Of a stretch of DNA of 33,333 nt, positions 2,608 to 29,170 are shown in pieces (position 1 is the stretch's first letter; the number at the start of each line of letters is the position of its first letter). The notes under the pieces were generated by a model, which was not told where the DNA came from, made no database searches, and was given only the letters and a program-made list of their open reading frames with translations. Position numbers and translations under genes: made by a program. Location of the stretch: NCBI GenBank assembly GCA_031389635.1, contig JANMST010000520.1, positions 1 through 33,333 of the forward strand, given 5' to 3'. The stretch is from Acidimicrobiia bacterium. Lineage in GTDB: Bacteria; Actinomycetota; Acidimicrobiia; Spongiisociales; ZC4RG35.

Positions 2608-2656
2608 ACCTCCAACCTCCAACCTCCAACCTCGAACTTCGAACTTCGAACTTCGA
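2608..2656. repeat. Heptamer tandem array A: (ACCTCCA)3 ACCTCGA (ACTTCGA)3
   Basis: Seven in-phase 7-bp units read directly. Confidence 0.95.
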
Positions 2657-2664
2657 ACCGCCGT

Positions 2665-2670
2665 TAGGGT
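2665..2670 (+). promoter_or_regulatory. Putative -10 box (TAGGGT) of leaderless M20 gene
   Basis: TANNNT 6 nt upstream of ATG 2677; no SD. Confidence 0.6.
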
Positions 2671-2676
2671 CCGGCC

Positions 2677-3825
2677 ATGGACCCGAAGTCAAGCGCTCGT
2701 GCAACCATCGAAAGCCATGCCGGGGAACTGCGCGACATCAGTCGATGGATGTTTCACAACCCCGAGGTCGCCTTTCAGGAACACCAGACCTCGGCCAAGC
2801 TGGCCCAATATCTCTCCAGTCAGGGTTTCAAAGTCGAGTATCCCGCCTACGGGCTCGAGACCGCCTTTGTCGCCCGGACCGGATCAACCGGACCCGAGGT
2901 CGTGATCTGCGCCGAGTACGACGCCCTGCCCGGGGTAGGCCAGGCCTGCGGACACAACATCATCGCCACCTCCGCCCTCGGAGCCGGCCTCGGCCTCAAA
3001 GACCTCGCCGAGTCGCTGGGCATCAGAGTCACCGTGCTTGGCACTCCCGCCGAGGAGTTGTACGGGGGCAAGGTCGACCTGATCAACGCCGGGGCCTTCT
3101 CCGACGCCTCACTGGCGATGATGGTGCATCCATCGACCCACGACGTGGTCGACCCGACCGTGATCTCCGTGGTCCATCTCGATGTCTCGTTCCGCGGCAA
3201 ATCGGCACATGCGTCATCGTTTCCATTCTCCGGGATCAACGCACTCGATGCCTTCGTCCAGGCTTACGTGAACGTCTCCACCCTGCGCCAGCAACTGGAG
3301 ACGACCGACAAGGTGCACGGGATCATCACACATGGAGGTGACGCCGCCAACATCATCCCGGACTTCACCAGGTCGACCTGGTATGTGCGAGCGCCACATC
3401 AGGAGCGACTGGACGTCCTTCTCCCTCGCATCATCGCCTGTTTTGAAGCGGCGGCCACCGCCACAGGATGCACAATGAAATTCGAGTCGGTCGGTCACCC
3501 CTTCGAGAACATGCGCCACAACCCGGTGCTGGTCGATCTCTACGGAGCAAATTCCGCCGCCATCGGCCGGCCGATGTTGCGGGGCGGCGACCTTCCTCCT
3601 CACCTCTCAGGATCGACCGACATGGGGAATGTGTCGAAAGTGGTGCCCGCGATCCATCCGATGATCAGCATCGACAGCCTGCCGGCCAGCAACCACCAGC
3701 CGGAATTCGCCGCTCACACCATCACCCCGGCCGGGGAGAAGGCCATCGTCGACGGTGCCATAGGAATGGCCTGGACAGTGATCGATGTAGCGATCGGAGA
3801 TCGCTGGGGAGAGCTTGCCGGCTAG
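2677..3825 (+). CDS. M20-family amidohydrolase (M20D / AbgB-PM20D2-like)
   Basis: Motifs EYDALP, CGHN, GTPAEE, GKSAHA, GINALDA, GSTDMGNVS. Confidence 0.9.
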   Translation: MDPKSSARATIESHAGELRDISRWMFHNPEVAFQEHQTSAKLAQYLSSQGFKVEYPAYGLETAFVARTGSTGPEVVICAEYDALPGVGQACGHNIIATSALGAGLGLKDLAESLGIRVTVLGTPAEELYGGKVDLINAGAFSDASLAMMVHPSTHDVVDPTVISVVHLDVSFRGKSAHASSFPFSGINALDAFVQAYVNVSTLRQQLETTDKVHGIITHGGDAANIIPDFTRSTWYVRAPHQERLDVLLPRIIACFEAAATATGCTMKFESVGHPFENMRHNPVLVDLYGANSAAIGRPMLRGGDLPPHLSGSTDMGNVSKVVPAIHPMISIDSLPASNHQPEFAAHTITPAGEKAIVDGAIGMAWTVIDVAIGDRWGELAG

Positions 3826-3837
3826 ACGCCGTCAAGC

Positions 3838-3915
3838 GGTTTGAGGTTTGAAGTTTGAGGCTTGAGGCTTGCGAGGTGAGGCAACCTCGAACTTCGGACC
3901 TCAAACCTCGAACCT
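3838..3915. repeat. Inverted heptamer arrays B between convergent genes (hairpin/terminator-like)
   Basis: Left arm GGTTTGA GGTTTGA AGTTTGA GGCTTGA GGCTTGC; right arm ACCTCGA ACTTCGG ACCTCAA ACCTCGA in the complementary orientation. Confidence 0.9.
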
Positions 3916-3918
3916 TCG

Positions 3919-5487
3919 TCAGCCGCCAATCGCGTAGAACTTTCCGTCTCTTACTCCCACATATATCCGACCGTTCCATACCGCCGGGGTCGACTCGATG
4001 CATGACTCCGAGAGCTGCAGGGTCCATTGAAGAATCGGCTGGCGCGGATCAGCGATGGAGTACGACCGCATCTCGCCGGTGCAACTCGCCACCAGCAGCT
4101 CTTCTCCAACGACCACCGGCGACGACCACGAATGCCATCCGATCTCTTCTCTGAACACGACCTCACCCGTCTCTTGATCGACCGCGAGAAGCTCGCCCGG
4201 ATTGGTCGAGGCATAAAGGACCCCGTCGCCGAGGGCCGGGGTGGCCCAGAAGCCTCCAAAGTCGGTGCCGCCAGGTACCTGGACCCCCCATACAAAGGGA
4301 TCCTCGGCGGACGGGTCGAGCTTGATCAGCTGACCAAGGTCGCGTGAGCGCTGGTTCTTGCGCTCCTCCTCGACGGCGGCGTAGATGTTGCCTTCGTGGT
4401 CGGAGATCAAGGTTGCATCGGTGTCATCCCCGACCCAATAGTCGAAGACCAACGGGGCATTGCCGTTCTCGATGTCGGAGATGTCGAAACCGGCCACTCG
4501 GCCGCCGGAATTGGAGAAATAGGCCGTCTCCCCGTGGACCATCACCGAGCTCTCGATCGAGACGTTGCGACCTACCAGCCCGAGGAGTTCCTGGGTCCAG
4601 CCGGGAGTCTGGAAGAGGATTTCCGGTGCTATTGCCACCAGTCCATCGCCGCCCATCGACCGGTTGAGCTTTACCGCAAAGAACCACGAGTTCTCACCAC
4701 CTTCGTACATCACGTCGTCAACGATCACCGGGTTGCCGTCCCAATCGTCGTTCCAGATGCCGTCGACCGCCGTCGCCTCGAGACCCCATAGCTCGATCGG
4801 CTCTGGCCGGTCGAGCGCAACGATTCGCAACCGGTTGTCGCGGGAACCGAAGTAGAGCAACGGATAGCCGTCGGGGTCGAGGGTCACCGAGCCCTTGATG
4901 ATGTCCCCTACCGGAAACGAAGGGCGAAGTTCGGCTCCGCTCTCGGCGTCGAGAAAGTGAACGGCTTTGTCGTAAGCGCCAAAGATGACCTCGGTGATTC
5001 CGTCCGGTCGCTCCCACACCACGGGTTGTCCGGTCCATCCTGATCCGCACCAGACACTCGATACTCCTGCGACCGAAGAGGAACCGCACATGCCTCCTTC
5101 CGGCGGATAGGACCACAACACCCGGGGATTCTCGGGAAGCGGCCCGCTCCCGTAGAACGTACGGGTGGGATTCCCCCGGAACATCGTCAGACCCACTGTC
5201 GATCCCCACGGCTCACCCACCGTAAAACCGGGCACGGTGCCGGGCTCCCGAGCCGGCAATGTGGTGGTGGTCGTCGTCGCAACTGTCGTGGTTGGGGCTC
5301 TCGTGGTAGTCGTCGGAGCGACTGTGGTGGTGGTGGCCTCGACGGCCAACCGCGCTGACTCGGACGATTCCTTCATCACCGCGTAGCTCACCGCCCCCAC
5401 CATCGACCCGAACAGGACCACGATCACGGCGGCGGCTCGCATCCGGGACGGAGCGGCCGCCGGATCCGGTGGTCGGTCGGGCGTCAC
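3919..5487 (-). CDS. Membrane-anchored PQQ-like (BamB-type) beta-propeller repeat protein
   Basis: N-terminal hydrophobic helix and Thr-rich linker; FRGNPTRT; repeated Trp-containing blades (WSSPVVVG, ESTPAVWNGRIYVG). GTG at 5487 overlaps the upstream TGA (GTGA). Confidence 0.8.
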   Translation of the reverse strand: MTPDRPPDPAAAPSRMRAAAVIVVLFGSMVGAVSYAVMKESSESARLAVEATTTTVAPTTTTRAPTTTVATTTTTTLPAREPGTVPGFTVGEPWGSTVGLTMFRGNPTRTFYGSGPLPENPRVLWSYPPEGGMCGSSSVAGVSSVWCGSGWTGQPVVWERPDGITEVIFGAYDKAVHFLDAESGAELRPSFPVGDIIKGSVTLDPDGYPLLYFGSRDNRLRIVALDRPEPIELWGLEATAVDGIWNDDWDGNPVIVDDVMYEGGENSWFFAVKLNRSMGGDGLVAIAPEILFQTPGWTQELLGLVGRNVSIESSVMVHGETAYFSNSGGRVAGFDISDIENGNAPLVFDYWVGDDTDATLISDHEGNIYAAVEEERKNQRSRDLGQLIKLDPSAEDPFVWGVQVPGGTDFGGFWATPALGDGVLYASTNPGELLAVDQETGEVVFREEIGWHSWSSPVVVGEELLVASCTGEMRSYSIADPRQPILQWTLQLSESCIESTPAVWNGRIYVGVRDGKFYAIGG

Positions 5488-6572
5488 GGCGCCCCGCAAG
5501 GAGGATCGTCGGTCAGCACCGGGTGCCCGGAACTCTCAATCACGGCCGGGATCAGACAACCGGTGATCTCACCTTCTGGAGAGATCACCACCCTTGCAAC
5601 TCCCGTGGCGGCGCTCGCCGGCGACAACTCGGGCCATACGAAGTTGCCGAGGCTCCAGAAGACCGGTCGGTCCTCGACGGTCTCGAACGGTTGCAACCGG
5701 TGGGGATGGTGACCGAAGACCGCGTCGGCGCCGGCAGCAATCATTGCCTCCGCCCTTTCCACGTCCTCGTCCCTGGGAGTCGCGTCCAGTTCCACCCCCC
5801 AGTGGACTGACACCACAACGAAGTCTGCCACAGAGGCGGCAGCTTCGACTGTCGACACCATGGACTCGATGGTGTCTCCGTCCGCCATCCCGGCTTGCTC
5901 GCCGGTTGCAATCCAACCGTCGTGAGGTCGGATGCCGCCGAAGCCGACGACCGCAATCCGCCAGCCGTTGATATGGAAAAGTGCAGGGATGGCGGCGACC
6001 GGGGCGGTCCGACCGGCTCCAACGGGCACCACCCCGATGGTCGACAGGTTCTGCATGCCGTCGAGCAGGGCTTCCTTGCCATAGTCCTGGGAGTGATTGT
6101 TGCCGAGATTGGCAACTTCAACTCCCGCCGCCGCCATCTCGGTCAACCCGTCGGCACACTGAAAGACAAACTCTTTGTCCTCGGCCGCCCCGAGAGCGGA
6201 TGGCGAGCACTCGAGGTTGACCAGCGTGAGGTCGTCGTCAAGGAACAAGCCATCGAGACCGCTCCAGGCCCATTCGTAGCCGTGGCTAGCCAGGGCGGGA
6301 ATGTAGGAAGGGTCGAGGTTGACATCGCCGGTCCCCTGGACGGTGACCCACCCCCTGGGCGGAACCGTGATGGCGGTAGACGTTGTGGTCGGCGCAGCCG
6401 TAGTGGTAGGTGGAGGGTTCGAGGTTGGAGGTGCGAGGTTCGAGGTTCGAGGTTGAGCCCCTGCCGGGGCGGAAGTCGGGGCTCCGGCGGATTGGCCGGC
6501 GCAAGCAAATGCAGCGGTGCCGAGTGCAAGCCCGCCCACAAGCACAACAACTACGCGCAAAGGGGAGGACAC
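5484..6572 (-). CDS. CapA (PGA_cap) family metallophosphoesterase-fold lipoprotein
   Basis: GDV, NLE, LGNNHSQDYG, HWG, GHHPH, SLGNF motifs; lipobox-like AFA-C; TACCCT -10 box 7 nt upstream of the GTG. Confidence 0.88.
   Translation of the reverse strand: MSSPLRVVVVLVGGLALGTAAFACAGQSAGAPTSAPAGAQPRTSNLAPPTSNPPPTTTAAPTTTSTAITVPPRGWVTVQGTGDVNLDPSYIPALASHGYEWAWSGLDGLFLDDDLTLVNLECSPSALGAAEDKEFVFQCADGLTEMAAAGVEVANLGNNHSQDYGKEALLDGMQNLSTIGVVPVGAGRTAPVAAIPALFHINGWRIAVVGFGGIRPHDGWIATGEQAGMADGDTIESMVSTVEAAASVADFVVVSVHWGVELDATPRDEDVERAEAMIAAGADAVFGHHPHRLQPFETVEDRPVFWSLGNFVWPELSPASAATGVARVVISPEGEITGCLIPAVIESSGHPVLTDDPPCGAP
6416..6457. repeat. Heptamer array C inside the CapA-family CDS linker
   Basis: GGTTCGA GGTTGGA GGTGCGA GGTTCGA GGTTCGA GGTTGAG, encoding QPRTSNLAPPTSN on the minus strand. 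Confidence 0.85.
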
Positions 6573-6627: not shown

Positions 6628-6702
6628 GCCTCGAACTTCATACCTCGAACCCCAAACCCTCCGGAACCACCACTCACCACGTACCACACAAAACGCACCA
6701 CG
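6628..6702. repeat. Composite heptamer array D (ACCTCGA family followed by CACCACG family)
   Basis: GCCTCGA ACTTCAT ACCTCGA ACCCCAA, then CACCACT CACCACG TACCACA CAAAACG CACCACG. Confidence 0.75.
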
Positions 6703-6710
6703 GTTCGGGC

Positions 6711-7469
6711 CTACAAAATCTGCGCCAGGAACTGCTTGGTTCTGTCCTCGGTCGGAGCAGTGAAGAAATGCTCCGGGGTCCCTACCTCGACTATCTGCCC
6801 ATCGGCCATGAAGACCACACGGTCGGCGACGGCCCGGGCAAAACCCATCTCATGGGTGACAACGATCATCGTCATCCCCGATGTGGCGAGTTCCTCCATC
6901 GACTCGAGGACTTCCTTGATCATCTCCGGATCAAGGGCCGAGGTCGGCTCATCGAACAACATAACCTTCGGTTGCATCGCCAGCGAACGAGCGATCGCCA
7001 CCCGCTGCTGCTGACCACCGGACAGCTGACCGGGAAACTTGTGGGCCTGCTCGGGAATCCGGACCTGCTCCAGCATGGACATCCCCAGGTCCTCGGCCCT
7101 GTCCCGGGGCATCCGCCGCACCTGCCGGGGAGCAAGGGTGACATTGTCGAGAACGGTCAGATGAGGAAAGAGGTTGAACTGCTGGAAGACCATGCCGGTC
7201 TCGCGACGTACTTCCTGAATCCGGCGCAGATCATCGCTAAGTTCGATCCCATCGACTACTACGCGCCCCCGGTCGTGCTTTTCCAGGCGATTCACACAGC
7301 GGATGAGCGTGCTCTTGCCCGAACCGGAGGGACCTATGACGACCACAACCTCCTTCCGGGCGACCACCAGGTTGATGTCCTTCAAAGCCTGGAAGGTCCC
7401 GAAGAACTTGTCGACGTTCTCCATCAGAATCATGGGGCCATCGACCGACGTCGGCATTGGGACTGTCAC
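6711..7469 (-). CDS. aapP: Amino-acid ABC transporter ATP-binding protein (AapP/BztD/GlnQ-like)
   Basis: Walker [38 protein letters not shown] at 7469 overlaps the upstream TGA; ATG 7457 is an alternative start. Confidence 0.92.
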
Positions 7470-8692
7470 CTTTCTCCGATCCCCAGCCGACGCTCGAGTC
7501 GCCTGGCCTCTCGCGACATGGTGTAGCAGCCCGCCCAAAAAGCAAGCGCGACGAATGGCAACGTGATCCGGGCCAGACCCTGAGCGTTGAAGGCCGGCTG
7601 CGTGTTGGCGAATCCGGACGCGGCGAGGATGTCTGGAAAGCCCACAACGGCGACCAGGGTCGTGTCCTTGAACAAGCTGATGAATTGCCCGACCATCGCC
7701 GGGATCGTGGCACGCAATGCCTGGGGCATCACAATCGAACGAGTTGTCTGGAAGGCGCTGAGACCGAGCGAGGCGGCTGCCTCCGTCTGTCCCGGCGGAA
7801 CCGCATGGAACCCTCCACGGACGACTTCAGCGATGTAGGCCGCTTCGAAGAGGGTGATAGCGATCAGCACCCTTGTAACACCCGAAGGGCGAAGCTCCAG
7901 GGGGAGGAAGAACCCCAGGGCGAACACACCCAGAAGGAGCAACGTTATGAGTGGCACTCCCCTGATCAACTCGATGTAGGTGACCGAGAGTCCTTTGACG
8001 ATAGGCAGAGAGGAGCGCCGGCCCAGGGCCAGCAGGATCCCGAGCGGGAAGGCGAACATGACACCGGCCATGGTCAGAAAAAGGTTCAACTGCAGGCCAC
8101 CCCATTGGTCCCACCCGATGCCCGATGTGGTCAGCGTCAGATACGCAGCGATCGGGAGCAAAAGAGCCAGCAACCACATCCACCTACGAGCACCGGACGG
8201 AACAGCCCGGCCGAGCCGGTTGGCGACCACTCCCACAAGCAACGCGCTGGCGACTGCGGTGGCCGGGCCTGGCGTTTGGGTCAGACCCAAACAGACCGCC
8301 ACGACCAGCCCCAGGGGCCAGAAGCGACGAGAGATCTGGACGAGGCTGCTGGCCGGGGTGAGCGGCAGACCGGCCTCACGGGCTCGGGCGGCAGTGCCCG
8401 ACCACACCAGGCCCGCCACCAGTCCGGTCATCGCTGCAATCACCGAAGCGCTGGCGGCCACTCGCCACAGCTGATCCCGGGGAAAGCCGCCCACAACGAA
8501 AAGCGCGAGATTTACCCGAAGAATCGTGAAGTCCGCGGCCGCGACGAAGCGGATCAGAGCGACCAAGGCGACAGCCAGCATCGTCCCCAGGACCAAGGTA
8601 AGGAAGCCATTGATGGGTGTGGAAAGAAGGTTCTTCCTGATCCAGTGGAGGGCCCCGGGGCGGGCTCGTGCGGGCATCGTCGCCGTCGCCAT
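7466..8692 (-). CDS. aapM: Amino-acid ABC transporter permease (AapM/BztC-like)
   Basis: [43 protein letters not shown] 8692 in a TGATG overlap. Confidence 0.9.
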
Positions 8693-9858
8693 CAGCGGGA
8701 CACCAGCCGGTAGCGTCGGCTGTAGACATTCACGACTGCGGAGATGACGAGACTGAAGGTGAGGTAGCACCCCATCAAGATGAGAATCGTCTGCGGAGCC
8801 GGTTGGCCGTTGCCTATCGCCTGATAGGCGATCAACGTCACGTCGGCGAACCCGACGGCGATCGCCAGAGAGGTGTTCTTGACGTAGTTGAGGTACTGGT
8901 TGATTGTAGGGGGTAGGGCGATTCTCAAGGCCTGCGGTAGAACGACAAACCGAAGCCTCTGTGTGTTCGAGAGGGCAAGGGCGTTGGCCGCTTCGGTTTG
9001 GCCTTTGGAAACCGCCTGGATCGAACCGCGGACAATCTCGGCGACATGACTGGCGGTATAGAGGACCAGCGCACCCAGGACCGCGAAGAACGCACCCAGA
9101 CCTCCGAACCCGCCGGTGATCACCCGTCCGTCAAGCACCGGAAGCGAAATGGTTAGGGGACGATCGAGAGCGATGTACGCGATCACCGCTACGACCATGA
9201 TGAAGCCCAGGGTCCAGAGCCAGCGATGGTGCGGCTGTCCGGTTCGGGCTTGCACCCGGGTTCGCGACCACCAAATCACAACACCCGAAACAACGGACAA
9301 AGCGAGGATCAGTTGATAGGTCGAGGCCCTCGCTCCGGACGAGATCCCGGGCACGTGGATCTCGAGGTTGCTGATCACCAACCACCCGAACGGGGTTATC
9401 GGACTGCGGGCAGCAGGGAGGCGGAGGATCACCGCCTGAAACGCAAAAACGATGAGCAACAAGGGCGGGAGATTCCGAACGGTCTCTACAAAGAGAGCGG
9501 AGGCCTTGGCCACCAGCCAGTTGGAGGAAAGCCGCCCTATTCCGACCAGCACACCAATGATCGTCAGCAAGGGAAGACCGACAACCGCCAGGGCCAGCGT
9601 GTTGCGAACCCCGTTGAGCAACGCCTCGCGGACCGACGACCCGGGGCTGAGATCAGATCCGGCGATCCGAACCCCGAAAGGCTGGCTGAGGAAGTCGAAG
9701 TCGGTGCGGATCCCGAGACGCCGGAGGTTGTTGCTGAGGTTGAACCAAAGGATGTAGAGGACAAGCCCGGCAACGACCACGGCGACGAGTTGCGCGACGA
9801 CGCGCAAGACCCGTATGTCACGCCAGAACGAAGGCCGAGCTTGGGGTTGGGTCGTGAT
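8692..9858 (-). CDS. aapQ: Amino-acid ABC transporter permease (AapQ/BztB-like); probable ATC start at 9858 (TTG 9807 is the first canonical codon)
   Basis: VRNLPPLL, AEIVRGSI, GQTEAA, KNTSLAIAVG. In-frame extension ITTQPQARPSFWRDIRV follows a GAGGGG SD. Confidence 0.88.
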   Translation of the reverse strand: MTTQPQARPSFWRDIRVLRVVAQLVAVVVAGLVLYILWFNLSNNLRRLGIRTDFDFLSQPFGVRIAGSDLSPGSSVREALLNGVRNTLALAVVGLPLLTIIGVLVGIGRLSSNWLVAKASALFVETVRNLPPLLLIVFAFQAVILRLPAARSPITPFGWLVISNLEIHVPGISSGARASTYQLILALSVVSGVVIWWSRTRVQARTGQPHHRWLWTLGFIMVVAVIAYIALDRPLTISLPVLDGRVITGGFGGLGAFFAVLGALVLYTASHVAEIVRGSIQAVSKGQTEAANALALSNTQRLRFVVLPQALRIALPPTINQYLNYVKNTSLAIAVGFADVTLIAYQAIGNGQPAPQTILILMGCYLTFSLVISAVVNVYSRRYRLVSR

Positions 9859-9869
9859 GTCTGCCCCTC

Positions 9870-9979
9870 AGTTTGAGGTTCGAAGTTAGAGGTTCGAGGC
9901 AGGAAGCCTGAGTTCGAACACCTCAGACCTCAAACCTCGAACCTCCTCATTCAAACCTCAAACTTCGAACCTCAAACCT
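9870..9979. repeat. Inverted heptamer arrays E between aapJ and aapQ
   Basis: AGTTTGA GGTTCGA AGTTAGA GGTTCGA, then two opposite-orientation blocks: ACCTCAG ACCTCAA ACCTCGA and ACCTCAA ACTTCGA ACCTCAA. Confidence 0.9.
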
Positions 9980-9984
9980 TCCTC

Positions 9985-11136
9985 CTACCGATACGGCGGT
10001 GCGTACTGGAGTCCCCCGTTGGTCCACAAGTCGTTGACACCACGGCTCAAACCTAGGGCCGTGTCGGGTCCGACGTTGCGATCGAAGATCTCGCCGTAGT
10101 TCCCGACCGCAGCGATCACGTTGGCTGCCCATCCTGCCTCGAGCCCAAGGCCAGAGTCGAAGATACTTGGCCCGTCATCTCCTGTGATTTCGAGGCCAAG
10201 CAGACGACGGATCTCGGCATTCTCGGTATCGGCGAACGAGTCGATGTTGCCCGACTCAATTCCCAATTCCTCGGCCAGGATCGTGGCGTAAACGACCCAG
10301 TTGATCACCTGCGCCCACTGCGAATCCCCGTCACGGATTGCCGGGCCGAGCGGTTCCTTCGAGAACGTCTCTTCGAGTATCACGACCGCCTCCGGGCCGC
10401 CTTCGGCTTCGGGGAAAGCCGAGCGGACACCGGCCAGCTGGGACTTGTCCGAGGTCCACCCGTCGCATTGGCCAGCCACGAACGCAGCCTGGAGGACCTC
10501 GTTGTCCTCGAAGGTCAAGGGTTCGTAGGGGATGTCCGCAAAGCGGGTCGCCAGGTTCAGTTCGGTGGTGGTCCCCGAAAGGACACAGATGGCAGTGTTG
10601 GCCAGGTCCTCAAGGGTCGTGAACCCCGAGTCCGACCTCACCATCATCCCCTGCCCGTCGTAGAACGTCGTATGCAGGAAGGTGGCGCCCTCACCACCGT
10701 CGCGACTTGACGTGAAGGTCGTGTTCCTGATCAGGACATCGATCTCACCGGACTGCAGCGCCGTGAACCGCTGCTGGGCGGTAAGCGGGACGTACTCGAC
10801 CGCCTCAGGGTCGCCCAGCACAGCGGCTGCGACCGCTTTGCAGAAGTCGATGTCGAATCCGGACAAAGTGCCATCCGGGTTGCGGAAGCCAAAGCCCGGG
10901 ACCGACTCATTGACTCCACACAACAGGCTTCCCCTGGCCTGGACCGCCCCGAGCAGCTCACCGCTTGGAGCCGGCGGCTGGGTTTCGGTGGTTTCGGTGC
11001 CGGGATCGGCAGTAGTGGCCGATCCGGAGTCGGTGGTGACGGTTCCCCCGGTCGTAGTGGTGGTATCGGCGGCCTGCGTGCAGGCTGACAGCGCAAGAAG
11101 AAGCGCCGTGGCTAACAAGAGGAACGGCTTCCTCAT
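9985..11136 (-). CDS. aapJ: Amino-acid ABC transporter substrate-binding lipoprotein (AapJ/BztA-like)
   Basis: Lipobox LSA-C; GFDIDFCKAVAAA, RFTALQSGEIDVL, FYDGQG, SKEPLGP, VGNYGEIFDRN, GGLQYAPP; GGAGG SD. Confidence 0.93.
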   Translation of the reverse strand: MRKPFLLLATALLLALSACTQAADTTTTTGGTVTTDSGSATTADPGTETTETQPPAPSGELLGAVQARGSLLCGVNESVPGFGFRNPDGTLSGFDIDFCKAVAAAVLGDPEAVEYVPLTAQQRFTALQSGEIDVLIRNTTFTSSRDGGEGATFLHTTFYDGQGMMVRSDSGFTTLEDLANTAICVLSGTTTELNLATRFADIPYEPLTFEDNEVLQAAFVAGQCDGWTSDKSQLAGVRSAFPEAEGGPEAVVILEETFSKEPLGPAIRDGDSQWAQVINWVVYATILAEELGIESGNIDSFADTENAEIRRLLGLEITGDDGPSIFDSGLGLEAGWAANVIAAVGNYGEIFDRNVGPDTALGLSRGVNDLWTNGGLQYAPPYR

Positions 11137-14259: not shown

Positions 14260-14388
14260 GCCACAGGCCACAGGCCACAGGCCTCAAGCGGCGTCGCACG
14301 TCTCACGTCTCACGTGCCACGGCTATGAGTCTTGGTGCCCGAGGCTGAAGCTGTCCGCCGTGAGGCGTGAGACGTGGGACTTGAGACG
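14260..14388. repeat. Composite inverted heptamer arrays F (GCCACAG and CGTCTCA families)
   Basis: (GCCACAG)3 GCCTCAA; CGTCGCA (CGTCTCA)2 CGTGCCA; inverted arm TGAGGCG TGAGACG TGGGACT TGAGACG. Confidence 0.9.
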
Positions 14389-20703: not shown

Positions 20704-20729
20704 TTGGGGGAGTGTCCGATCCTAGGAGC

Positions 20730-20760
20730 AACGGTGGGGCCGAGATACGGCCCCACCGTT
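20730..20760 (-). terminator. Intercistronic stem-loop after pstS (attenuating or mRNA-stabilising)
   Basis: Perfect 13-bp stem AACGGTGGGGCCG / CGGCCCCACCGTT with a 5-nt loop. Confidence 0.75.
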
Positions 20761-20770
20761 TGCTTCGATC

Positions 20771-21817
20771 TCAGATGCCTGTCGCTGTAAGCCAGGCATC
20801 GATGGCGGACTGGAGGTCTGCCGCAGGGGCAGGGAAGTACCCGACCTCGGTGATGACATCGTTCACTACATCGAGGTAGTAGGCGATGAAAGACGCCACT
20901 TGGGGCTTTTCGGCCATGATGGCGGCGTCGCTGTAGATGAAGAGTGGACGTGCCAGCGGGTAGGTGCCGTTGCCGACGTTGTCGCCAGAGGCCTCGACTC
21001 CATCCACGCTCACCAGGGTGAGGCCGGCCGCGTTCTCGGAGTAGTAGGCGTAGCCGAAGTAGCCGATGGAGCAGGCACTGGCGAGGTCGCCTTCCGTGCA
21101 AGTATCGCCTTCGACCCCCTGGACCAGCACGTTGTCATCCTCAGAAAGCTGGAGACCGCTGGTCGCCAGGAGCGGTTCCGGATCGTCGTCGAACACGGAC
21201 TCGACGAAGTAGTCGAAGGTGCCCGAGTCGGTGCCGGGCGAGAACCGGGCGATCGGATGAGCCGGAAACGCGGGGTCGACATCGGCCCAGGTCGATGCGG
21301 TCGAGAACGCCAAGGCCAACTGCTCCAGGCTCAGGTTCTCAACGAAGTAGTTGTTCGGGCTGACGACTATTGCCAGTGCGTCGGTGCCGACCCTGAACTC
21401 GATCGGAGTGCGCCCGATTGCTTCGCACAGAGCGATCTCTTCCTCGTCGATCGGGCGACTGGCGTTCGAAATATCGGTCTCCCCTGCCTCGCAGAATCTT
21501 TCAAAGCCAGCTCCCGTTCCGACCGAATCAATGGTGATCTGGTCGCCGTACCCGTCGTCCTCGAACTGGGCCGCGACGGCTTCGGTCAGCGGGAAGACGG
21601 TCGAACTGCCGGCAGTGACGATGTCGCCGGTCACCTCGAGCGGATCGACGAGAGGCAAACCTTCCTCGGTAATTGCCCCGGTGGTTGTGGTTTCTCCGGC
21701 TGCCGCGGTCGTAGTAGTGGCTCCGCCCGCCGTCGTAGTGGTTTCTGAGTCACTGCCGCAGGCAGCTATTACAAGGGCCAGGGCCGCCAGCGAGGCCCCC
21801 AGCTTCAGTCGGTTCAT
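20771..21817 (-). CDS. pstS: Phosphate ABC transporter substrate-binding lipoprotein
   Basis: Lipobox IAA-C; GSSTVFP, GTGAGF, SGTFDYF, YPLARPLFIY; AAGGAGA SD before ATG 21817. Confidence 0.95.
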   Translation of the reverse strand: MNRLKLGASLAALALVIAACGSDSETTTTAGGATTTTAAAGETTTTGAITEEGLPLVDPLEVTGDIVTAGSSTVFPLTEAVAAQFEDDGYGDQITIDSVGTGAGFERFCEAGETDISNASRPIDEEEIALCEAIGRTPIEFRVGTDALAIVVSPNNYFVENLSLEQLALAFSTASTWADVDPAFPAHPIARFSPGTDSGTFDYFVESVFDDDPEPLLATSGLQLSEDDNVLVQGVEGDTCTEGDLASACSIGYFGYAYYSENAAGLTLVSVDGVEASGDNVGNGTYPLARPLFIYSDAAIMAEKPQVASFIAYYLDVVNDVITEVGYFPAPAADLQSAIDAWLTATGI

Positions 21818-21884
21818 GTTGTTTCGATCTCCTTCTCGGGAGGCACCGCTCATAGAGAGCGGACCCGGTTTCTTGCCAGGCAAG

Positions 21885-21942
21885 GTGAACCTAAGGAGTC
21901 CCGTTAACCGACAACCTGCCTCAAAGTGAACGGCAGGTAAAC
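21885..21942 (-). promoter_or_regulatory. Candidate PHO box upstream of pstS
   Basis: Minus strand GTTTAC-ctgcc-GTTCAC (11-nt period), plus GTTAAC and GTTCACC closer to the gene; resembles actinobacterial PhoP GTTCACC direct-repeat units. Confidence 0.65.
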
Positions 21943-21961
21943 GTTGTCCGCAGGTCGGCCG

Positions 21962-22600
21962 TCATGACAGGACCGGCACCAACTCTGCCAGGAGGCCCCG
22001 GACCCGGCCTTCCAGGTCGTCGCGGATCCTCCGGACAACCTCGATGGGCTGGCCGGAGGGATCGTCCAGTTCCCAATCGACGTAGCGCTTGCCCGGAAAG
22101 ACCGGACAGGCGTCGCCACAACCCATGGTCACCACCACATCGGCGGCCCTGACGATTTCGTCGGCCCAGGGTTGGGGTATCTCACCGCTGATGTCGATGC
22201 CCTTCTCGGCCATGGCCTCGACCGCGACCTTGTTGACCTCGTCGGCCGGTTCCGAGCCCCCGGAGAACACCTCGACTTGATCGCCGGCGAGGTGGCGCAT
22301 CCATCCGGCCGCCATCTGCGATCGGCCGGCGTTGTGGACGCACAGGAACAGGACGCTCGGGTTGAGATCAGTGTTTTCGCCATCAAGCCGAACCAGGGCC
22401 CTCAACCGATCCCTGGCGAAGCGCTCGGCCAGAAGCGGAATCCACATAGTCGACTTGGCCCGATCCGTCAGCGTGTCCACCGAGTCGGACAAGAAGCGCT
22501 CGATGGTCTCTACGTTCAATTGGCCCTCGAATTGATGGCGAAGCCGAACGGCGGCCTGCATAATGAGGAATCTTTCTTCGGTGGTGAGGGTCGTGGTCAT
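21962..22600 (-). CDS. arsC: LMW-PTP-fold arsenate reductase with N-terminal helical dimerisation extension
   Basis: CVHNAGRSQM P-loop, MGCGDACP resolving cysteines, WELDDP; N-terminal IPLLAERFARDRL; AAGGAG SD. Confidence 0.88.
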   Translation of the reverse strand: MTTTLTTEERFLIMQAAVRLRHQFEGQLNVETIERFLSDSVDTLTDRAKSTMWIPLLAERFARDRLRALVRLDGENTDLNPSVLFLCVHNAGRSQMAAGWMRHLAGDQVEVFSGGSEPADEVNKVAVEAMAEKGIDISGEIPQPWADEIVRAADVVVTMGCGDACPVFPGKRYVDWELDDPSGQPIEVVRRIRDDLEGRVRGLLAELVPVLS

Positions 22601-22604
22601 CTCA

Positions 22605-23270
22605 CTATTGCTCCTTCTCGGTTGAGACTGCCAGGCGGTCGATGCGACGGTCAATGTCGTTGAAGGCGGTTCGGAACGAGGTCAGGCCCCGGCCCGCGAC
22701 CGGATCGGGCACCGACCAATGGAGGGCCGGAACCTCGAACGGTGGTCCGGCCTCCCGGGCACGGTCGCAGACCGACACCACCAGGTCGAACTCCGGGTCC
22801 AGTCCCTCGTAGCCCTTGGGACGGAAGCCCGCCAGGTCCAGACCCCGCTCCAATGCGACCTGAATAGCCCGCGGATCCACACGGTTAGCAGGATGGGTGC
22901 CGGCGCTTTCGGCGCCAAGGCCCGTCCGCCGACGCCAGGCGGCGGCGGCGTATTGCGATCGGGCCGAGTTGTGACTGCACACAAACAACACCGAGCGGAG
23001 CACGAGCCGTCGAGTCGACATCAGTCCGTCCAGGCGTTCGGGATTGAGAGATATGTAGCGACGCCGCCGGTCGCCTTCCGAGACACGCCGTTCGATCAGC
23101 CCTGCTTCATCCAGGACTCCGAGGTGGTGGGCCACGAGGTTGCCTGGCTGCGCGGCCGACTCTGCCAGCTCCTGAAAGGTGCGGTCGCCCGACTCGAGTT
23201 CGGCAACGATGCCCAACCGGATCGGATCCCCCAGGGCGGCGTGGACGCGGGCCCGTTCGTTCAGATCCAT
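22605..23270 (-). CDS. ArsR-type HTH fused to an ArsC/LMW-PTP-like domain
   Basis: ALGDPIRLGI...HHLGVL.EAGLI HTH; VLFVCSHNSARSQ, VCD, WSVPDP. Confidence 0.88.
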   Translation of the reverse strand: MDLNERARVHAALGDPIRLGIVAELESGDRTFQELAESAAQPGNLVAHHLGVLDEAGLIERRVSEGDRRRRYISLNPERLDGLMSTRRLVLRSVLFVCSHNSARSQYAAAAWRRRTGLGAESAGTHPANRVDPRAIQVALERGLDLAGFRPKGYEGLDPEFDLVVSVCDRAREAGPPFEVPALHWSVPDPVAGRGLTSFRTAFNDIDRRIDRLAVSTEKEQ

Positions 23271-23271
23271 C

Positions 23272-23289
23272 ACTCAGAGAATAATGAGT
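23272..23289. promoter_or_regulatory. Inverted repeat ACTCA-N8-TGAGT enclosing the -10 box (TATTCT) of the HTH-ArsC gene; candidate operator
   Basis: actca gagaataa tgagt; the -10 box at 23278-23283 is 7 nt from ATG 23270. Confidence 0.5.
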
Positions 23290-23356
23290 CAGTATTCCTT
23301 GAGCAACTCTGTGGCACTCTTCCTATCGCCCAGGGGCGAACCGTCACAAGAACGGG

Positions 23357-25399
23357 TCAGATGTGCGCTCGAGCTCTCGCCAGGGCCAGACCCTGCAGAG
23401 TGTCGTGGGCGTTGACGCCACGTTCGGTCGGTAACCGGTGCCACTGACCGTCACCGACGAGCTCCCAGGCGAGCTCGTCGTCGGCCATCAGCACATCGAT
23501 GATCTCGTCGAGGCGGAACTGAAGGTCGGCGTCTTCCACCGGTACCAGCGCCTCCACACGGTGGTCGAGGTTGCGCGGCATTAAGTCGGCCGAGCCGATC
23601 AGATAGGTGCGGGTCCGGGCTCGCGACCCGAATCGGAAGATCCGGGAGTGCTCCAGGTAGCGGCCCACGATCGACCGGACCCTGATGTTCGAGGACATGC
23701 CGGGCACCTCTGGGATCAGACAGCAGATTCCGCGCACGATCAGGTCGATCTTGGTCCCTGCCTCGGAGGCCGCGTAGAGGGCATCGATCATTCCCGGGTC
23801 AGCCAACGAGTTCATCTTGAGAGTGATCGAGCCGTCCGGCATCGACGCTTCGTGTTCAATCAACTCGACGAGGCGACGGCGAATGCCGTCGGGTGACACC
23901 GCCAGCTTCCGATAGTTGCGCTGACGGCTGTACCCGGTGAGGAAATTGAAGAGGTCCGAGAGATCCGCCCCGATCTCGGCGTCGCTTGTGAACAGACCGA
24001 GATCCTCGTAGAGGCGAGCGGTCGTTTCGTTGTAGTTGCCGGTGGCGATATGGCCGTATCTGCGGATCGTCTCGCCCTCATCCCTGACGACGAGCGAGAT
24101 CTTGGTGTGGGTTTTGAGACCCGCCACTCCGTATACGACGTGGACTCCGGCGTCTTCCAACCGCTGGGCCCACTCGATGTTGCGCTCCTCGTCGAAACGC
24201 GCCCTCAACTCGACCAAGGCGACCACCTGTTTGCCCTCATTGGCGGCGTGGATCAGCGACTGCATCATCGAACTGTCTCGACTGGTCCTGTACAGCGTCT
24301 GTTTGATAGCCAGCACTCGCGGATCCCGGGCGGCGGTGGCTATGAAGGCTTCGGTGGAGGCGGTGAAGGAGTCGTAGGGGTGCTGAACCAACAGAGCGGA
24401 GTCGCCGATCACCCGGAAGAAATCGGGGTAGACCCCGCCTATCGGAGCAAGGCGCGATGGGATGACACCGTTGAAGGGCTCGTACTTGAGATCGTCGCGC
24501 GGAAGCGACGTGAGGGTGAAGAGGCCACCCAGGTCGAGCGGACCCTCGACTCTGTAGACCTGGTCTTCGGTGGCACCCATTTCCCGGAGCAGCAAGTCAA
24601 GGAGATCCGCGGAGAAGTCCGGCGCAACCTCGAGCCGCACGACCTTGCCGAAACGGCGCCTCGTGAGCTCGCTCTCCATGGTGAGCAGGAGATCGCCGCT
24701 TTCGTCCTCGTCGTCGATCTCGATGTCCGCGTTGCGTGTCACCCGGAACGGGTGGTTGGCCACGATCTCCATCCCCGGAAATAACTCGCCGAGATGAGCG
24801 GCGATGAGCTGCTCGAGGGGGACGAAGCGCTCACCGTCGGGCAGGACCACGAACCGGGGAAGGATCGGCGGGACCTTGACCCGGGCGAACCTGGTCACCT
24901 TCGACTCGGGATGCCGAACAACCACAGCCAGGTTCAAAGAGAGGTTCGAGATATAGGGAAACGGATGGGAAGGGTCGACCGCCAGAGGTGTCACCACCGG
25001 ATAGACCCGCTCCCGAAACTGGAGGTCCATGTAATGGCGGTCCTCTTCGTCGAGGTCGCCGTAGTCGGAGAAACCTATTCCGGCCGCAGCTAGTCGAGGG
25101 GCGATGTCGGTTATGAAGACCTTGCCGGCCCGTTCGTAGTGCCCCTGAGCGACCGTCCGGACAGCCTCGAGGGTCTCATTAGGTGTCAGTCCATCGGGTG
25201 TCGGAGTTCTGATTCCGCGAACCACCAATTCATGCAGGCCCGACACCCGGACTTGATAAAACTCGTCGAGGTTCGAGGACCATATCGCCAGGAATTTGGC
25301 CCGTTCCAGCAGGGGCACCGAGGGGTTTTCGGCAAGCGCCATCACCCTGGAGTTGAAATCCAGCCAGGAAAGCTCACGGTTGAGGTATCGATCGGTCAC
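23357..25399 (-). CDS. ppk1: Polyphosphate kinase 1
   Basis: NRELSWLDFN, SNLDEF, TPLAVDPSHPFP, ARFDEERNI, KTHTK, TGNYN, GRYLEHSR, SADLMPRNL. GTG 25399 is the likely start. Confidence 0.97.
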   Translation of the reverse strand: MTDRYLNRELSWLDFNSRVMALAENPSVPLLERAKFLAIWSSNLDEFYQVRVSGLHELVVRGIRTPTPDGLTPNETLEAVRTVAQGHYERAGKVFITDIAPRLAAAGIGFSDYGDLDEEDRHYMDLQFRERVYPVVTPLAVDPSHPFPYISNLSLNLAVVVRHPESKVTRFARVKVPPILPRFVVLPDGERFVPLEQLIAAHLGELFPGMEIVANHPFRVTRNADIEIDDEDESGDLLLTMESELTRRRFGKVVRLEVAPDFSADLLDLLLREMGATEDQVYRVEGPLDLGGLFTLTSLPRDDLKYEPFNGVIPSRLAPIGGVYPDFFRVIGDSALLVQHPYDSFTASTEAFIATAARDPRVLAIKQTLYRTSRDSSMMQSLIHAANEGKQVVALVELRARFDEERNIEWAQRLEDAGVHVVYGVAGLKTHTKISLVVRDEGETIRRYGHIATGNYNETTARLYEDLGLFTSDAEIGADLSDLFNFLTGYSRQRNYRKLAVSPDGIRRRLVELIEHEASMPDGSITLKMNSLADPGMIDALYAASEAGTKIDLIVRGICCLIPEVPGMSSNIRVRSIVGRYLEHSRIFRFGSRARTRTYLIGSADLMPRNLDHRVEALVPVEDADLQFRLDEIIDVLMADDELAWELVGDGQWHRLPTERGVNAHDTLQGLALARARAHI

Positions 25400-25529
25400 A
25401 GCAATTCGACCATTCTGATCGGCTTCGGTAGCCAACGAGTGAACAAAAAGCCACCAAAACGTGGTTTGGCCGGGCGTCACCCTGAAATCCAGACGCCGAA
25501 AGCCCGTCGCCAGACGACACACACGGTGG

Positions 25530-26129: not shown

Positions 26130-26165
26130 CGGATCCCAGGCTACCCAAACCCCGGCGGCACGTAT

Positions 26166-27224: not shown

Positions 27225-27281
27225 GCCGGGAGCCCGGCCCTTGGCTGAAGGTTCGGGCGCGGTCGTGCTACACACACAATT

Positions 27282-28301
27282 GTGAGTTCCCTTCCATGGT
27301 GGGGGCGGCGCCTGATCACAGTGCCCATCGTCCTCATCGCCTGGGCATTATCGGTGCTTCTGTCACCCGTACTGTTCGTAGCCGCCGTTCTTGTGGATGG
27401 GTGGAGAACGGTCCGCTCCCGGGCAACGCCGATGGCATGGCGCATGGTGGCGATTCTCATCACGTATCTATCCGGGGAGTTCTTCGCCGTCGTGGGTGCC
27501 TTCCTTTTGTGGGTTCGCTCCGGGTTCGGGACCAATCGGGCACGCCTGGTGCGACTGAGCTACAAGCTCCAGTTGGGTTGGGGCAACCTGCTTTGGGAGT
27601 CCGTCCGGGTGATCTTCCGGTTGCGAATCGAGATCGACGGATTGGAGGTCGCCCAACCAGGACCGATCCTCATCCTGGCTCGCCATGCCTCGATCATCGA
27701 CAACGTCCTGCCCTTCCAGCTCTTCTCACGAGCTCACGGGATGACTCTCAGATATGTGATCAAGAAGGAACTCTTGATGGATCCGGCCCTGGACATCGCC
27801 GGAAGCTGGTTGCCCAACCACTTTGTGGATCGTCAGGCAACGGACCCCGAAGTCGAGATCAAGGCGTTGCGCCGCCTGGGGTCGGGCTTGACCGAGAACG
27901 ATGGTCTCCTGATATTCCCCGAAGGAACCAGGTTTACGAAGGAGAAGCAGGAGCGAGCCCTGGCCAGCCTGCAAAAACGGAATCCACGTTTCCATCGCCA
28001 TGTCGCCGGTCTCCGCCATCTCATGCCGCCCCACCCCGGGGGGGCGCTGGCTTTGCTGGAAGCCTCGTCGGCCGACGTCGTCTTGGTCGCACATCACGGG
28101 TTCGACGGATTCGCCCAGGTCAAAGACATCTGGGCAGGGGGCATGGTCGGGAAAGTTGTGACGGTGAGACTGACGAGGGTCCCGTTCAGCCAGATCCCCG
28201 AAGGGCGCGGGCACCGAACCGAATGGCTCTTCAAGGTCTGGCAGGAAATGGACGACTGGATCTCGAGTCTGGATCAGCAGGCCGTGCCCACTGATGGTTG
28301 A
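27282..28301 (+). CDS. 1-acyl-sn-glycerol-3-phosphate acyltransferase (PlsC-like)
   Basis: HX4D motif RHASIID, FVDR, IFPEGTRF; N-terminal hydrophobic segments. Confidence 0.85.
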   Translation: MSSLPWWGRRLITVPIVLIAWALSVLLSPVLFVAAVLVDGWRTVRSRATPMAWRMVAILITYLSGEFFAVVGAFLLWVRSGFGTNRARLVRLSYKLQLGWGNLLWESVRVIFRLRIEIDGLEVAQPGPILILARHASIIDNVLPFQLFSRAHGMTLRYVIKKELLMDPALDIAGSWLPNHFVDRQATDPEVEIKALRRLGSGLTENDGLLIFPEGTRFTKEKQERALASLQKRNPRFHRHVAGLRHLMPPHPGGALALLEASSADVVLVAHHGFDGFAQVKDIWAGGMVGKVVTVRLTRVPFSQIPEGRGHRTEWLFKVWQEMDDWISSLDQQAVPTDG

Positions 28302-29085
28302 CGTCTTCATAACAGCGGCATCCACGATCGCCGTGTTGATGCTCGCTACCTGGCTCGTGAGCGGCGTCGTCAGGAATGCCTCGATCGTTGACCTCGTCTG
28401 GGGTCTCGGGTTCGTCCTGGTGGCATGGGCGGTCTTTCTTCGACACTCCCTCGAAACCGAAATCGGTAACCCCGGGCGGGTGCTCGTGCCGGTCATGCTG
28501 ACGACCGTCTGGGGCTTGCGCCTTTCGGGGTACCTCGGCTGGCGCAACATAGGGAAGGGAGAGGACTACCGCTACCGGGCGATGCGTGAGAAGCACGAAC
28601 GCAGATTCTTCTGGGTCAGCCTCGGCACCGTCTTCGGCCTGCAGGGAGTGCTGATGTGGATAGTTTCGCTTCCTGTGCAGGCCGCCGTCGCTCGGCCCAG
28701 CGCTTCGGATGTCTTTGGGTGGTTATTGATTCTCGGAGTGGGCTTTTGGGTGGTCGGATTCGCTTTCGAGACCGTCGGCGATATCCAGCTGGCCCGCTTC
28801 AAAGCCAACCCCGCCAACAGGGGGAAAGTCATGGACCGGGGGCTGTGGCGGTACACACGTCATCCCAACTACTTCGGCGACTTCTGTATTTGGTGGGGGA
28901 TGTACTTGATCGCTTTCGAAGCCGGTCATTGGTGGACGATCGTGGGACCGGCGGTGATGACCGCCTTGCTCATGAAGTACTCGGGCGCGGGTTTGCTGGA
29001 GAAGACCATCGTCAACCGCCGGCCCGGCTACGAGGAGTACGTCAAGAAGACCAACACTTTCTTTCCTGGTCCGCCCAAGCCATAG
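28294..29085 (+). CDS. DUF1295 / steroid 5-alpha-reductase-like membrane protein
   Basis: SIVDLVWG, WGLRLS, GEDYRY, GLWRYTRHPNYFG, YEEYVKKTN.FFP. Confidence 0.88.
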   Translation: MVDVFITAASTIAVLMLATWLVSGVVRNASIVDLVWGLGFVLVAWAVFLRHSLETEIGNPGRVLVPVMLTTVWGLRLSGYLGWRNIGKGEDYRYRAMREKHERRFFWVSLGTVFGLQGVLMWIVSLPVQAAVARPSASDVFGWLLILGVGFWVVGFAFETVGDIQLARFKANPANRGKVMDRGLWRYTRHPNYFGDFCIWWGMYLIAFEAGHWWTIVGPAVMTALLMKYSGAGLLEKTIVNRRPGYEEYVKKTNTFFPGPPKP

Positions 29086-29170
29086 GTTCGAGGTTCGAGG
29101 TTCGAGGTCGGGACGTGAGACGTGGGACGTGAGACGTGAGACGCCGCCTTGAGACTGGGGGCCTGAGGCT
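29085..29170. repeat. Composite heptamer array G (GGTTCGA family running into ACGTGAG family)
   Basis: (GGTTCGA)3 GGTCGGG ACGTGAG ACGTGGG (ACGTGAG)2, then a degenerate ttgagac/ctgaggc tail. Confidence 0.92.

Follow-up and report, generated by a model that had tools for sequence, protein, structure and literature searches.

Why should a single bacterial contig carry, at seven separate places, tandem arrays that all keep a period of 7 bp while the sequence of the unit changes freely from one to the next? The question is raised by the first 33,333 nucleotides of contig JANMST010000520.1 from Acidimicrobiia bacterium (assembly GCA_031389635.1), which is the whole stretch of DNA analysed here and is called the window below; its arrays lie between positions 2,608 and 29,170. 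A preliminary description, made from the letters of this DNA, had seen in them the best candidate in this DNA for an uncharacterised system, and had argued from their conserved period and free sequence for a dedicated generating process or a structural role rather than simple slippage. Our analysis places them instead in a kind that is already known, the bacterial heptamer excess having been in print since 2007. The answer towards which we lean, tentatively and with some doubt, is that the arrays are heptanucleotide simple-sequence repeats like those of Xanthomonas, the cyanobacteria and Geobacter, likely born of replication slippage and resized by it.

Arrays were called with Tandem Repeats Finder throughout the genome to which the window belongs as contig C353 (G000 below), a metagenome-assembled genome of 3.70 Mb in 549 contigs, fragmented, with 63% G+C and a completeness of 96.7%. 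Among the genome's 2398 repeat rows, a strict cut (score at least 40, with 3 copies or more) leaves 338 period-7 arrays, whereas periods 6, 8, 9 and 12 are represented by 15, 2, 7 and 17. When the score threshold is lowered to 30, again with 3 copies or more, there are 461 period-7 arrays in 311 loci. An alignment-free count of perfect 14-nt self-matches finds 1757 of them per Mb at lag 7 in intergenic DNA, as against 98 per Mb in coding sequence, and no lag other than 7 and 14 gives more than 65 per Mb. The genome-wide check on period 7 that had been proposed for this DNA is therefore positive, both in the array counts and in the lag-7 signal. The same holds for a second species of the genus (G002), with 34 period-7 arrays of score at least 40 and at most 4 of any other period.

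The arrays are placed far from randomly with respect to genes, as can be seen both in their low gene cover and in their counts by type of gap. Gene calls were our own and crude (a codon-usage model with the longest start codon), so that starts are over-extended and some genes missed; by these calls, 314 of the 461 arrays lie entirely outside genes, and genes cover 85% of the genome but 24% of the bases in period-7 arrays. Mean gene cover is 0.24 for period 7, compared with 0.91 for period 6 and 0.92 for period 9, and arrays of period 12 are likewise about 90% in genes. Of gaps at least 40 bp long, arrays occupy 53 out of 274 where the genes converge, 154 out of 895 where they run in tandem and 34 out of 359 where they diverge. 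In tandem gaps they start at a median of 16 nt behind the upstream stop codon, and 87 tandem loci are nearer to that stop as against 67 nearer to the next start.

What is repeated is not one sequence but a library. The 461 arrays comprise 65 canonical units, about a dozen of which, related to one another, make up most of the arrays; the commonest are CTGGCGT (62), GAGGCTT (51), GCGTGGT (49), GAGGTTT (41), CGAGGTT (33) and GAGACGT (25). All main families have one G+T-rich strand, and at tandem loci with a single array the sense strand is A+C-rich in 60 cases and G+T-rich in 36. A GGG or CCC run is present in the unit of 36 of the 461 arrays, which means that the G-quadruplex is not the common denominator, and more generally the many unit families rule out explanations that depend on one sequence, such as G-quadruplexes.

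How do these arrays compare with known heptamer repeats? The likeness to cyanobacterial short tandemly repeated repetitive (STRR) sequences and to other intergenic heptamers, already drawn in the preliminary description, is upheld. In Calothrix and Nostoc the STRR sequences are short tandem heptamers of several families per genome, mostly intergenic; the arrays of G000 share the plurality of families and the intergenic position, in a different host phylum, and the likeness is one of description and not of compared units. The closest match is that of the Xanthomonas repeats, here without G-quadruplex potential. As excerpts of Rehm et al. (2015, PMC4692102) describe them, the Xanthomonas repeats of unit GGGAATC form about 185 arrays, with a mode of four units, 70-75 inverted pairs and a share of about 90% in intergenic DNA; they lie on average 28 nt behind the upstream open reading frame (ORF) and 160 nt before the next, with 16% in convergent and 7-8% in divergent gaps, and a given site varies between two species in both length and sequence, no function having been found. 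Set beside these excerpts, the present arrays are like the Xanthomonas GGGAATC and Nostoc GGGGAYT repeats in forming hundreds of tandem 7-bp arrays per genome with about four units each, and like those of Xanthomonas also in being intergenic, nearer to the upstream ORF, under-represented in divergent gaps, often in inverted pairs and variable by site between sister species; in Nostoc, the same excerpts say, inverted pairs are few (PMC4692102). They differ from both in their actinobacterial host, in the coexistence of at least 12 unit families where the others have one, and in that the G-tract in every unit, which marks the G-rich subtype of Xanthomonas and Nostoc, is not a feature of the units here.

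The wider class is that of Mrázek, Guo and Shah (2007), who, as summarised in excerpts of PMC4679880 and PMC4692102, found heptanucleotides to be the commonest long simple-sequence repeats in scattered lineages, Actinobacteria included, and proposed a slippage step set by the polymerase. Four characters of this class are found here, namely tandem repetition in at least three copies, an excess of period 7, an intergenic bias and, in one array, variation in copy number. As in that summary, period 7 dominates among units of 5-11 nt and is patchy across lineages; fixed end phases, a modal module and swaps of family at orthologous sites set the present arrays apart from the survey as summarised. 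Two further systems are partly similar. In Geobacter metallireducens, excerpts of PMC2700814 list elements of four heptamers at 49 loci and of five heptamers at 15 sites, so that a module of about four heptads is shared with G000; unlike the present arrays, those elements are described there as having a single consensus each, as occurring also within genes and as being aligned as longer elements. The Beggiatoaceae repeats TAACTGA are intergenic direct repeats of 2-6 copies at about 170 loci, patchy among lineages (PMC4679880, in excerpts). They differ in having one unit and almost no inverted copies and in lying just upstream of start codons, where the arrays here are nearer to the upstream stop codon. 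What is new in G000 is the library of coexisting unit families, the exclusion of G-quadruplexes as a common cause, the fixed end phases and the family swaps; a literature search found no publication joining such heptamer repeats with names beginning Dormibacter or Acidimicrobi.

Direct signs that slippage is at work come from changes in copy number. Sequencing runs whose labels are freshwater-sediment metagenome or sediment metagenome contain contigs near-identical to the window, and one of these runs may represent the source sample. For two runs, X1 and X2, the contigs align over 9832-10300 and 8665-10287 respectively; apart from one extra 7-nt unit in each, at 9950/9953 within an array of 8.6 copies, they depart from the window at 0 and 3 letters. 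The arrays at 3838 and 6416 are bridged by contigs and unchanged. At one site in the genome about 1.6 units in G002 correspond to 3.7 in G000, which is growth in place from a short seed. Slippage is thus likely to be what resizes the arrays, and it is the most economical source of the period. An artefact of assembly or binning, on the other hand, is scarcely conceivable as an explanation. It would draw on the 549 contigs of the metagenome assembly and on the 30 of 311 heptamer loci that lie within 100 bp of a contig end, compared with about 3% expected; the same arrays, however, are present in independent contigs of four runs from two studies and arrays occur in five other genomes of the genus, one of them with contigs up to 311 kb. 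As the excess at contig ends indicates that the arrays themselves break the assembly, the true number of arrays is probably higher than that given here. In practical terms, arrays of this kind break short-read assemblies and would be good strain markers for this uncultured group.

According to the slippage reading, replication slippage favouring a 7-nt step would create the arrays and resize them, leaving mostly four-unit modules of about 30 nt, built from about a dozen related units, in non-coding DNA close behind genes. To judge from the distribution, selection would remove arrays from reading frames and from divergent promoter regions, and would tolerate them in disordered protein linkers, three units amounting to seven codons. 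Stems built of repeats would persist because they stay complementary after any slip. A minority of arrays do lie within reading frames, where they encode, for example, ETPDARRQTPDARRQ or EPQTSNL in low-complexity stretches, and the frame survives because three units equal seven codons. Two in-frame arrays were seen near the 5' end of an ORF with a second DnaE-type polymerase domain (G000:C258:7039-7136), and these may be a tolerated insertion or reflect an over-extended start call.

Relatives share the period, not the unit. Genomes related to G000 were sampled over 20-500 kb each, and being kin they are not statistically independent. The genome of G000 itself, which has four WhiB genes (among 14 control genomes WhiB was found only in Corynebacterium) and a DXS whose closest relative, at 68% identity, is in a genome labelled Acidimicrobiia, carries 12.5 arrays per 100 kb. 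From these genes, together with a NucS and the lack of any MutS hit, the host is taken to be an actinobacterium, probably of the class Acidimicrobiia; Candidatus Dormibacterota, an early candidate based on weaker DXS hits, was set aside for Actinomycetota. Within the genus, G001 has 11 and G002 about 8 per 100 kb, and G004 has 0 in 47 kb sampled. In other genera of the family we counted 3 in 100 kb (G007), 3 in 94 kb (G011), 1 in 80 kb (G014) and 2 in 180 kb (G024), and 0 in each of 51 kb (G008), 62 kb (G010), 57 kb (G015) and 80 kb (G017). In other families of the order there is 1 in 84 kb (G029), 1 in 100 kb (G035) and, in 80 kb of contig C1 of G036, 10 arrays of quite different units. The units of G036, TCGGTCC x8.4, AGACGTC x14 and others, are unrelated to those of G000, and the heptamer arrays of that genome represent a separate, independent burst. 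For the GAGGYTY family, a pattern of three units occurs 70 times in G000 and 9, 9 and 2 times in three of five congeners; outside the genus, none of 35 genomes from its family and order contained it. The claim that the period is conserved while the sequence is free is therefore well founded, in the 65 units of one genome, in the swaps at the same site between sister species and in the unrelated units of G036. The genus offers a natural contrast between G000, G001 and G002, with about 8-12 arrays per 100 kb, and G004, with none in 47 kb; the contrast extends beyond the genus, most of the other genera sampled in the family having 0-3 per 100 kb, and G036 showing its own burst.

Slippage alone does not explain everything that was seen, and the following observations weigh against it as a full account. 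Array lengths depart from a geometric distribution. Of 607 period-7 rows, 98 measure 30-31 nt and 5 measure 35 nt, so that in place of a steady decay there is a peak at 30-31 nt and a sharp fall above 34 nt; a typical array contains four full units and the first 2-3 letters of another. The ends, examined with two boundary methods, keep to a single phase on the G+T-rich strand in 39 of 62 arrays of the CTGGCGT family, 35 of 49 of the CGTGGTG family and 16 of 25 of the CGTGAGA family, and array starts are likewise concentrated in phase; in G002, arrays of a shared family have the same end in 14 of 22 cases and the same start in 9 of 22. A fixed end phase speaks against slippage from random seeds, because random seeds predict uniform phases. 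Stop codons do not anchor the phase, only 11 out of 144 canonical starts being 6 nt or less from a stop codon in the sense direction. Same-family inverted pairs are present at 73 of 311 loci, compared with about 10 separated same-family direct pairs. The same few units recur at many unlinked loci, and the set of units differs between sister species. Polymorphism was seen in one array out of about four that are bridged by contigs.

Sites, too, are retained more than slippage would suggest. In 119 orthologous intergenic sites compared between G002 and G000, arrays are present in both species at 10, in G002 only at 4, in G000 only at 19 and in neither at 86 (odds ratio 11, Fisher p 9e-5); in 28 sites compared between G001 and G000, the window region included, the figures are 5, 2, 1 and 20 (odds ratio 50, p 0.001). 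Neither odds ratio is adjusted for gap length, and conserved gap length is a possible confounder of both. At about half of the shared sites the two species have different units. This comparison of orthologous sites, which had been suggested for this DNA, returns a mixed picture in which some sister sites are empty and others hold arrays, often of a different unit; at the window loci, the sister species usually also have heptamer arrays, often of another family.

Finally, the profile of repair and replication enzymes gives no lineage-specific cause for the slippage. MutS (MutS_V) was found in 1 of 41 genomes and not in G000, NucS in 35 of 41 including G000, and two DnaE-type polymerases (DNA_pol3_alpha matches) in most of the 41; these tallies include G038, which is flagged as unpublished and on which alone no claim is made. 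The profile of MutS, NucS and the second DnaE-type polymerase is near-uniform in genomes of high and low load, and is the actinobacterial repair profile common to the whole order. The preliminary contrast with simple slippage is accordingly right only in part. Slippage does operate, as shown by the one-unit change and by growth from a 1.6-unit seed, and taken alone it leaves the fixed phase, the 30-31 nt mode and the inverted-pair excess unaccounted for, as well as the retention of sites. The fixed end phase and the length mode together suggest that something further constrains the arrays, whether a reader of about four heptads or a form of copying with defined ends.

The first of these would be met if the arrays served to bind a protein moving along DNA in steps of 7 bp and requiring about four contiguous heptads, on the model of the ParB/omega proteins or of a nucleoid protein; selection for occupancy would then fix the length and the ends of the module, and slippage would be only noise. 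By analogy with such proteins this is an arguable reading, if an unlikely one. In pSM19035, according to excerpts of PMC9499535, the ribbon-helix-helix ParB/omega protein needs at least four contiguous heptads in parS, and the arrays here similarly consist of contiguous 7-bp units, direct or inverted as in omega operators, with a mode of 30-31 nt that amounts to four or more units. The mode of four units plus 2-3 nt, the end phases fixed by family and common to G002, and the retention of sites while the unit changes would all be expected of a bound platform, and four-heptad elements recur at the 49 loci of Geobacter metallireducens excerpted above (PMC2700814). A common skeleton can be cited as well: R-Y-Y-W-C-R-N, into which most units had been said to align, fits 271 of the 461 arrays compared with 10.8% of random intergenic heptamers, in a test that is not fully independent in that the skeleton was derived from arrays of G000 itself. 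Many of the units that do not fit are one change away from it; the claim fails, however, for the largest family, CTGGCGT. Hence the difficulties for a single reader: at least 12 families have different cores, the commonest is off the skeleton, and unit swaps at the same site would need several readers or one that reads shape. The pSM19035 sites are, moreover, a few plasmid promoter sites, in contrast to hundreds of chromosomal loci here, and no candidate protein was identified. The omega repressor family (PF07764, Omega_Repress) scored over the cut-off in 0 of 41 genomes, a search of little power given that 14 controls also gave 0, and confined to that one among the ribbon-helix-helix families.

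The excess of inverted pairs suggests another function, in which the pairs are the functional form, long stem-loops placed at the ends of transcripts or between cistrons and acting as terminators without a U-tract or as barriers to 3' exonucleases in the manner of repetitive extragenic palindromic (REP) elements, and single arrays are decayed halves. Two or more arrays are present at 114 of the 311 loci. Loci with inverted pairs have a median fold of about -65 kcal/mol, and, with z-scores taken from RNA folds against dinucleotide shuffles, z is below -3 at 149 of 308 folded loci compared with 21 of 100 array-free intergenic controls. The position at a median of 16 nt behind the upstream stop codon would also suit such a role, as would a convergent site in the window (3838) that has a hairpin of different family in G000 and G001. 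A consensus scan found no canonical terminator at the window arrays or in the window's intergenic regions, in keeping with such a role; a search of the whole window against Rfam gave 0 matches at the gathering score.

The tests that bear on RNA more directly nevertheless went the other way, and we consider a hairpin role distinctly unlikely. Hairpin stability has no sense-strand bias (37 versus 38 tandem loci), and the share of hairpin-forming loci is alike in all types of gap (divergent 15 of 34, convergent 24 of 53, tandem 75 of 154). A U-tract, taken as at least 5 T in a 10-nt tail, is rare in tandem gaps: it follows 4 of the 38 loci with paired arrays and 10 of the remaining 116. REP elements classically lie behind solute-binding-protein genes, and such genes are not enriched upstream of the arrays (1 of 19, compared with 195 of 3044 among all genes). 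The arms of one locus are no more complementary to each other than to same-family arms of different loci (0.854 versus 0.835, p 0.13), from which it follows that arms do not co-evolve within a locus. Single arrays account for 197 of the 311 loci, and these fold like control intergenic DNA (median z -1.55 versus -1.42). The RNA-hairpin role proposed in the preliminary description therefore finds no positive result in any hairpin or terminator test, whether of strand bias, U-tract or solute-binding-protein genes. With the REP family of enterobacteria and pseudomonads, including bacterial interspersed mosaic elements (BIME) and REP doublets forming hairpins (REPIN), the arrays have in common modules of 20-40 nt, hundreds of copies behind genes, species-specific families and inverted hairpin doublets; they differ from REP and REPIN in that the modules are tandem heptads rather than imperfect palindromes, that doublet spacers are not conserved, and that no REP-associated tyrosine transposase (RAYT) of the Y1 type was found in the genomes searched.

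Copying with defined ends, the second form that the extra constraint might take, would require a dedicated process that writes or copies modules of about 30 nt into hot spots behind genes, by templated synthesis or as a non-canonical mobile element, with the unit families as variants of the template. The fixed end phase and length, with the same canonical form in two species, would follow from it, as would the presence of the same units at many unlinked loci that share no flanks. At the C210 site a whole hairpin of 69 nt is present in G000 and absent from G002. A single locus may combine several families, in some cases nested as A B .. B' A', and the bursts are patchy and lineage-specific, those of G036 having unrelated units. 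On the other side, the Y1 (RAYT) transposase PF01797 was found in 0 of 5 genomes, G000 included. Reverse-transcriptase hits are confined to G000 and G008, with none in the heptamer-rich G001 and G002, so that their distribution does not follow array load. The few families tried thus yielded no transposase, reverse transcriptase or repair defect whose occurrence matches that load, and a dedicated generating enzyme, as envisaged at first, was not found within this search of a handful of enzyme families. Pair loops run from -4 to 128 nt with a median of 36 and have no homology between loci, and the flanks of the arrays have neither a conserved sequence nor a target-site pattern, the lack of conservation meaning that the arrays are not part of a larger mobile element. 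Growth in place and the one-unit change, for their part, need no such machine. Such a writing process seems to us very unlikely, in a judgement limited by the handful of enzyme families covered.

A larger mobile element had appeared as a candidate in one family of flanks, and was rejected when this proved to be a separate dispersed repeat of about 70 nt, 8 of whose 58 copies lie within 60 bp of arrays. Rich in C and doubly palindromic, this element folds at -49.6 kcal/mol and has 58 BLAST hits in G000. It is found at G000:C114:3540-3640 and some 45 other sites in the genome, none of them in the window, and near arrays about as often as would be expected of any intergenic element. ARAGORN found no tRNA in eight copies. 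It looks REP-like, or like a miniature inverted-repeat transposable element (MITE), and a similar sequence stands at the counterpart of the 3838 site in G003.

Beyond these particular forms one may ask whether a dedicated chromosomal system measures DNA in 7-bp steps, the modules being its output or its target and not slippage debris. We regard this as doubtful. A reader or writer of about four heptads would then set the ends and the 30-nt length and keep the sites while the sequence turns over, and the system would have arisen or been lost repeatedly. If it were true, one unrecognised mechanism would underlie the repeats of Xanthomonas, Geobacter and this actinobacterial genus alike. With slippage as the preferred reading no less than with a dedicated system, the arrays bear on a decades-old question, namely why repeats in the non-coding DNA of bacteria should favour a step of seven. 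The four-unit module recurs in Xanthomonas and Geobacter and, together with the fixed phase, makes a testable handle: either slippage has a threshold near 30 nt, or there is a reader of about four heptads.

Within the window itself, Tandem Repeats Finder places its 10 period-7 rows and its 4 period-14 rows exclusively at the loci first noted, and each of those seven is confirmed as a period-7 array. Six are intergenic as described, the seventh lying in a coding linker; three have inverted arms (3838, 9870 and 14260) and fold far better than shuffles, and three join different families end to end (14260, 29085 and 6628), again in agreement with what had been observed. The arrangement of inverted arms at the orthologous sites of relatives, given below, was taken from reading the sequences.

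The first locus, 2608..2659, is a direct array of 7.4 units running ACCTCCA -> ACCTCGA -> ACTTCGA, as established by Tandem Repeats Finder and by reading the sequence, between the divergent ORFs 2077..2622 (-) and 2677..3825 (+). Its fold is weak (-8.9 kcal/mol). In G001 the site is occupied by a shorter array from the same family, and in G002 and G005 it has no array. At 3838..3915 an inverted pair of GGTTTGA x4.9 (3838-3871) and AACCTCG x4.7 (3883-3915) encloses an 11-nt loop between convergent genes for an M20 peptidase (+) and a PQQ beta-propeller protein (-). The hairpin has -47.1 kcal/mol and z -7.0 on the + strand and -37.2 kcal/mol and z -6.1 on the - strand; at this site G001 has an inverted pair of another family, GGTACGT / ACGTACC, and G002 is without an array.

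The coding array, GGTTCGA x5.6 at 6416..6454 on the - strand, lies inside ORF 5484..6572 (-) and encodes part of a Pro/Thr/Ser-rich linker between a lipoprotein signal peptide and a PGA_cap domain. Signal peptide and domain are kept in G001, G003, G004 and G005, the linker of G001 being built from another heptamer. Next to it, between the start of this ORF and the stop of an ABC ATPase gene at 6711..7538 (-), is a degenerate composite at 6628..6701 of ACCTCGA-like and then ACCACGN-like units, with a period-14 row at 6668-6701; G001 and G002 have ACCACG-type arrays at this site.

At 9870..9979 an inverted pair of AGTTAGAGGTTCGA x2 (9870-9897) and ACCTCAA x8.6 (9920-9979) separates a solute-binding-protein gene from the first permease gene, both on the - strand, with a fold of -66 kcal/mol and z -8.1. 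The same family is found at this site in G001, G002 and G003, and an ATCCGCG-type inverted pair in G004. At 14260..14388 there is a composite of GCCACAG x3.4 (14260-14283) and CGTCTCA x3.4 (14292-14315), followed after a 43-nt loop by the inverted partner CGTGAGA x4.3 (14359-14388). It lies between the DXS and histidine-kinase genes, both on the - strand, ending 3 nt from the kinase stop codon, and folds with -48.6 kcal/mol and z -4.2; G002 has an AGACGCC / TGGCGTC inverted pair here, and G001 units of the GATGGAG type. The last locus, 29084..29143, consists of two abutting direct arrays, AGGTTCG x3.6 (29084-29108) and GACGTGA x4.6 (29112-29143), upstream of a CorA gene; the first overlaps the TAG stop of a DUF1295 gene, and the locus forms no hairpin (fold z +0.4).

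Two further features of the window may be recorded. An ordinary phosphate cluster occupies 16118-25522 on the - strand, with genes for a polyphosphate kinase, two of the ArsR/low-molecular-weight (LMW) phosphatase type, pstS-like, pstC, pstA, pstB, phoU, a response regulator and a histidine kinase, and there is no heptamer array between its genes. A tandem repeat with a unit of 51 bp (4.3 copies, 87% matches) overlaps - strand ORFs (3..563 and 142..684) at 308-528, and, its unit being 17 codons, it may be a coding repeat.

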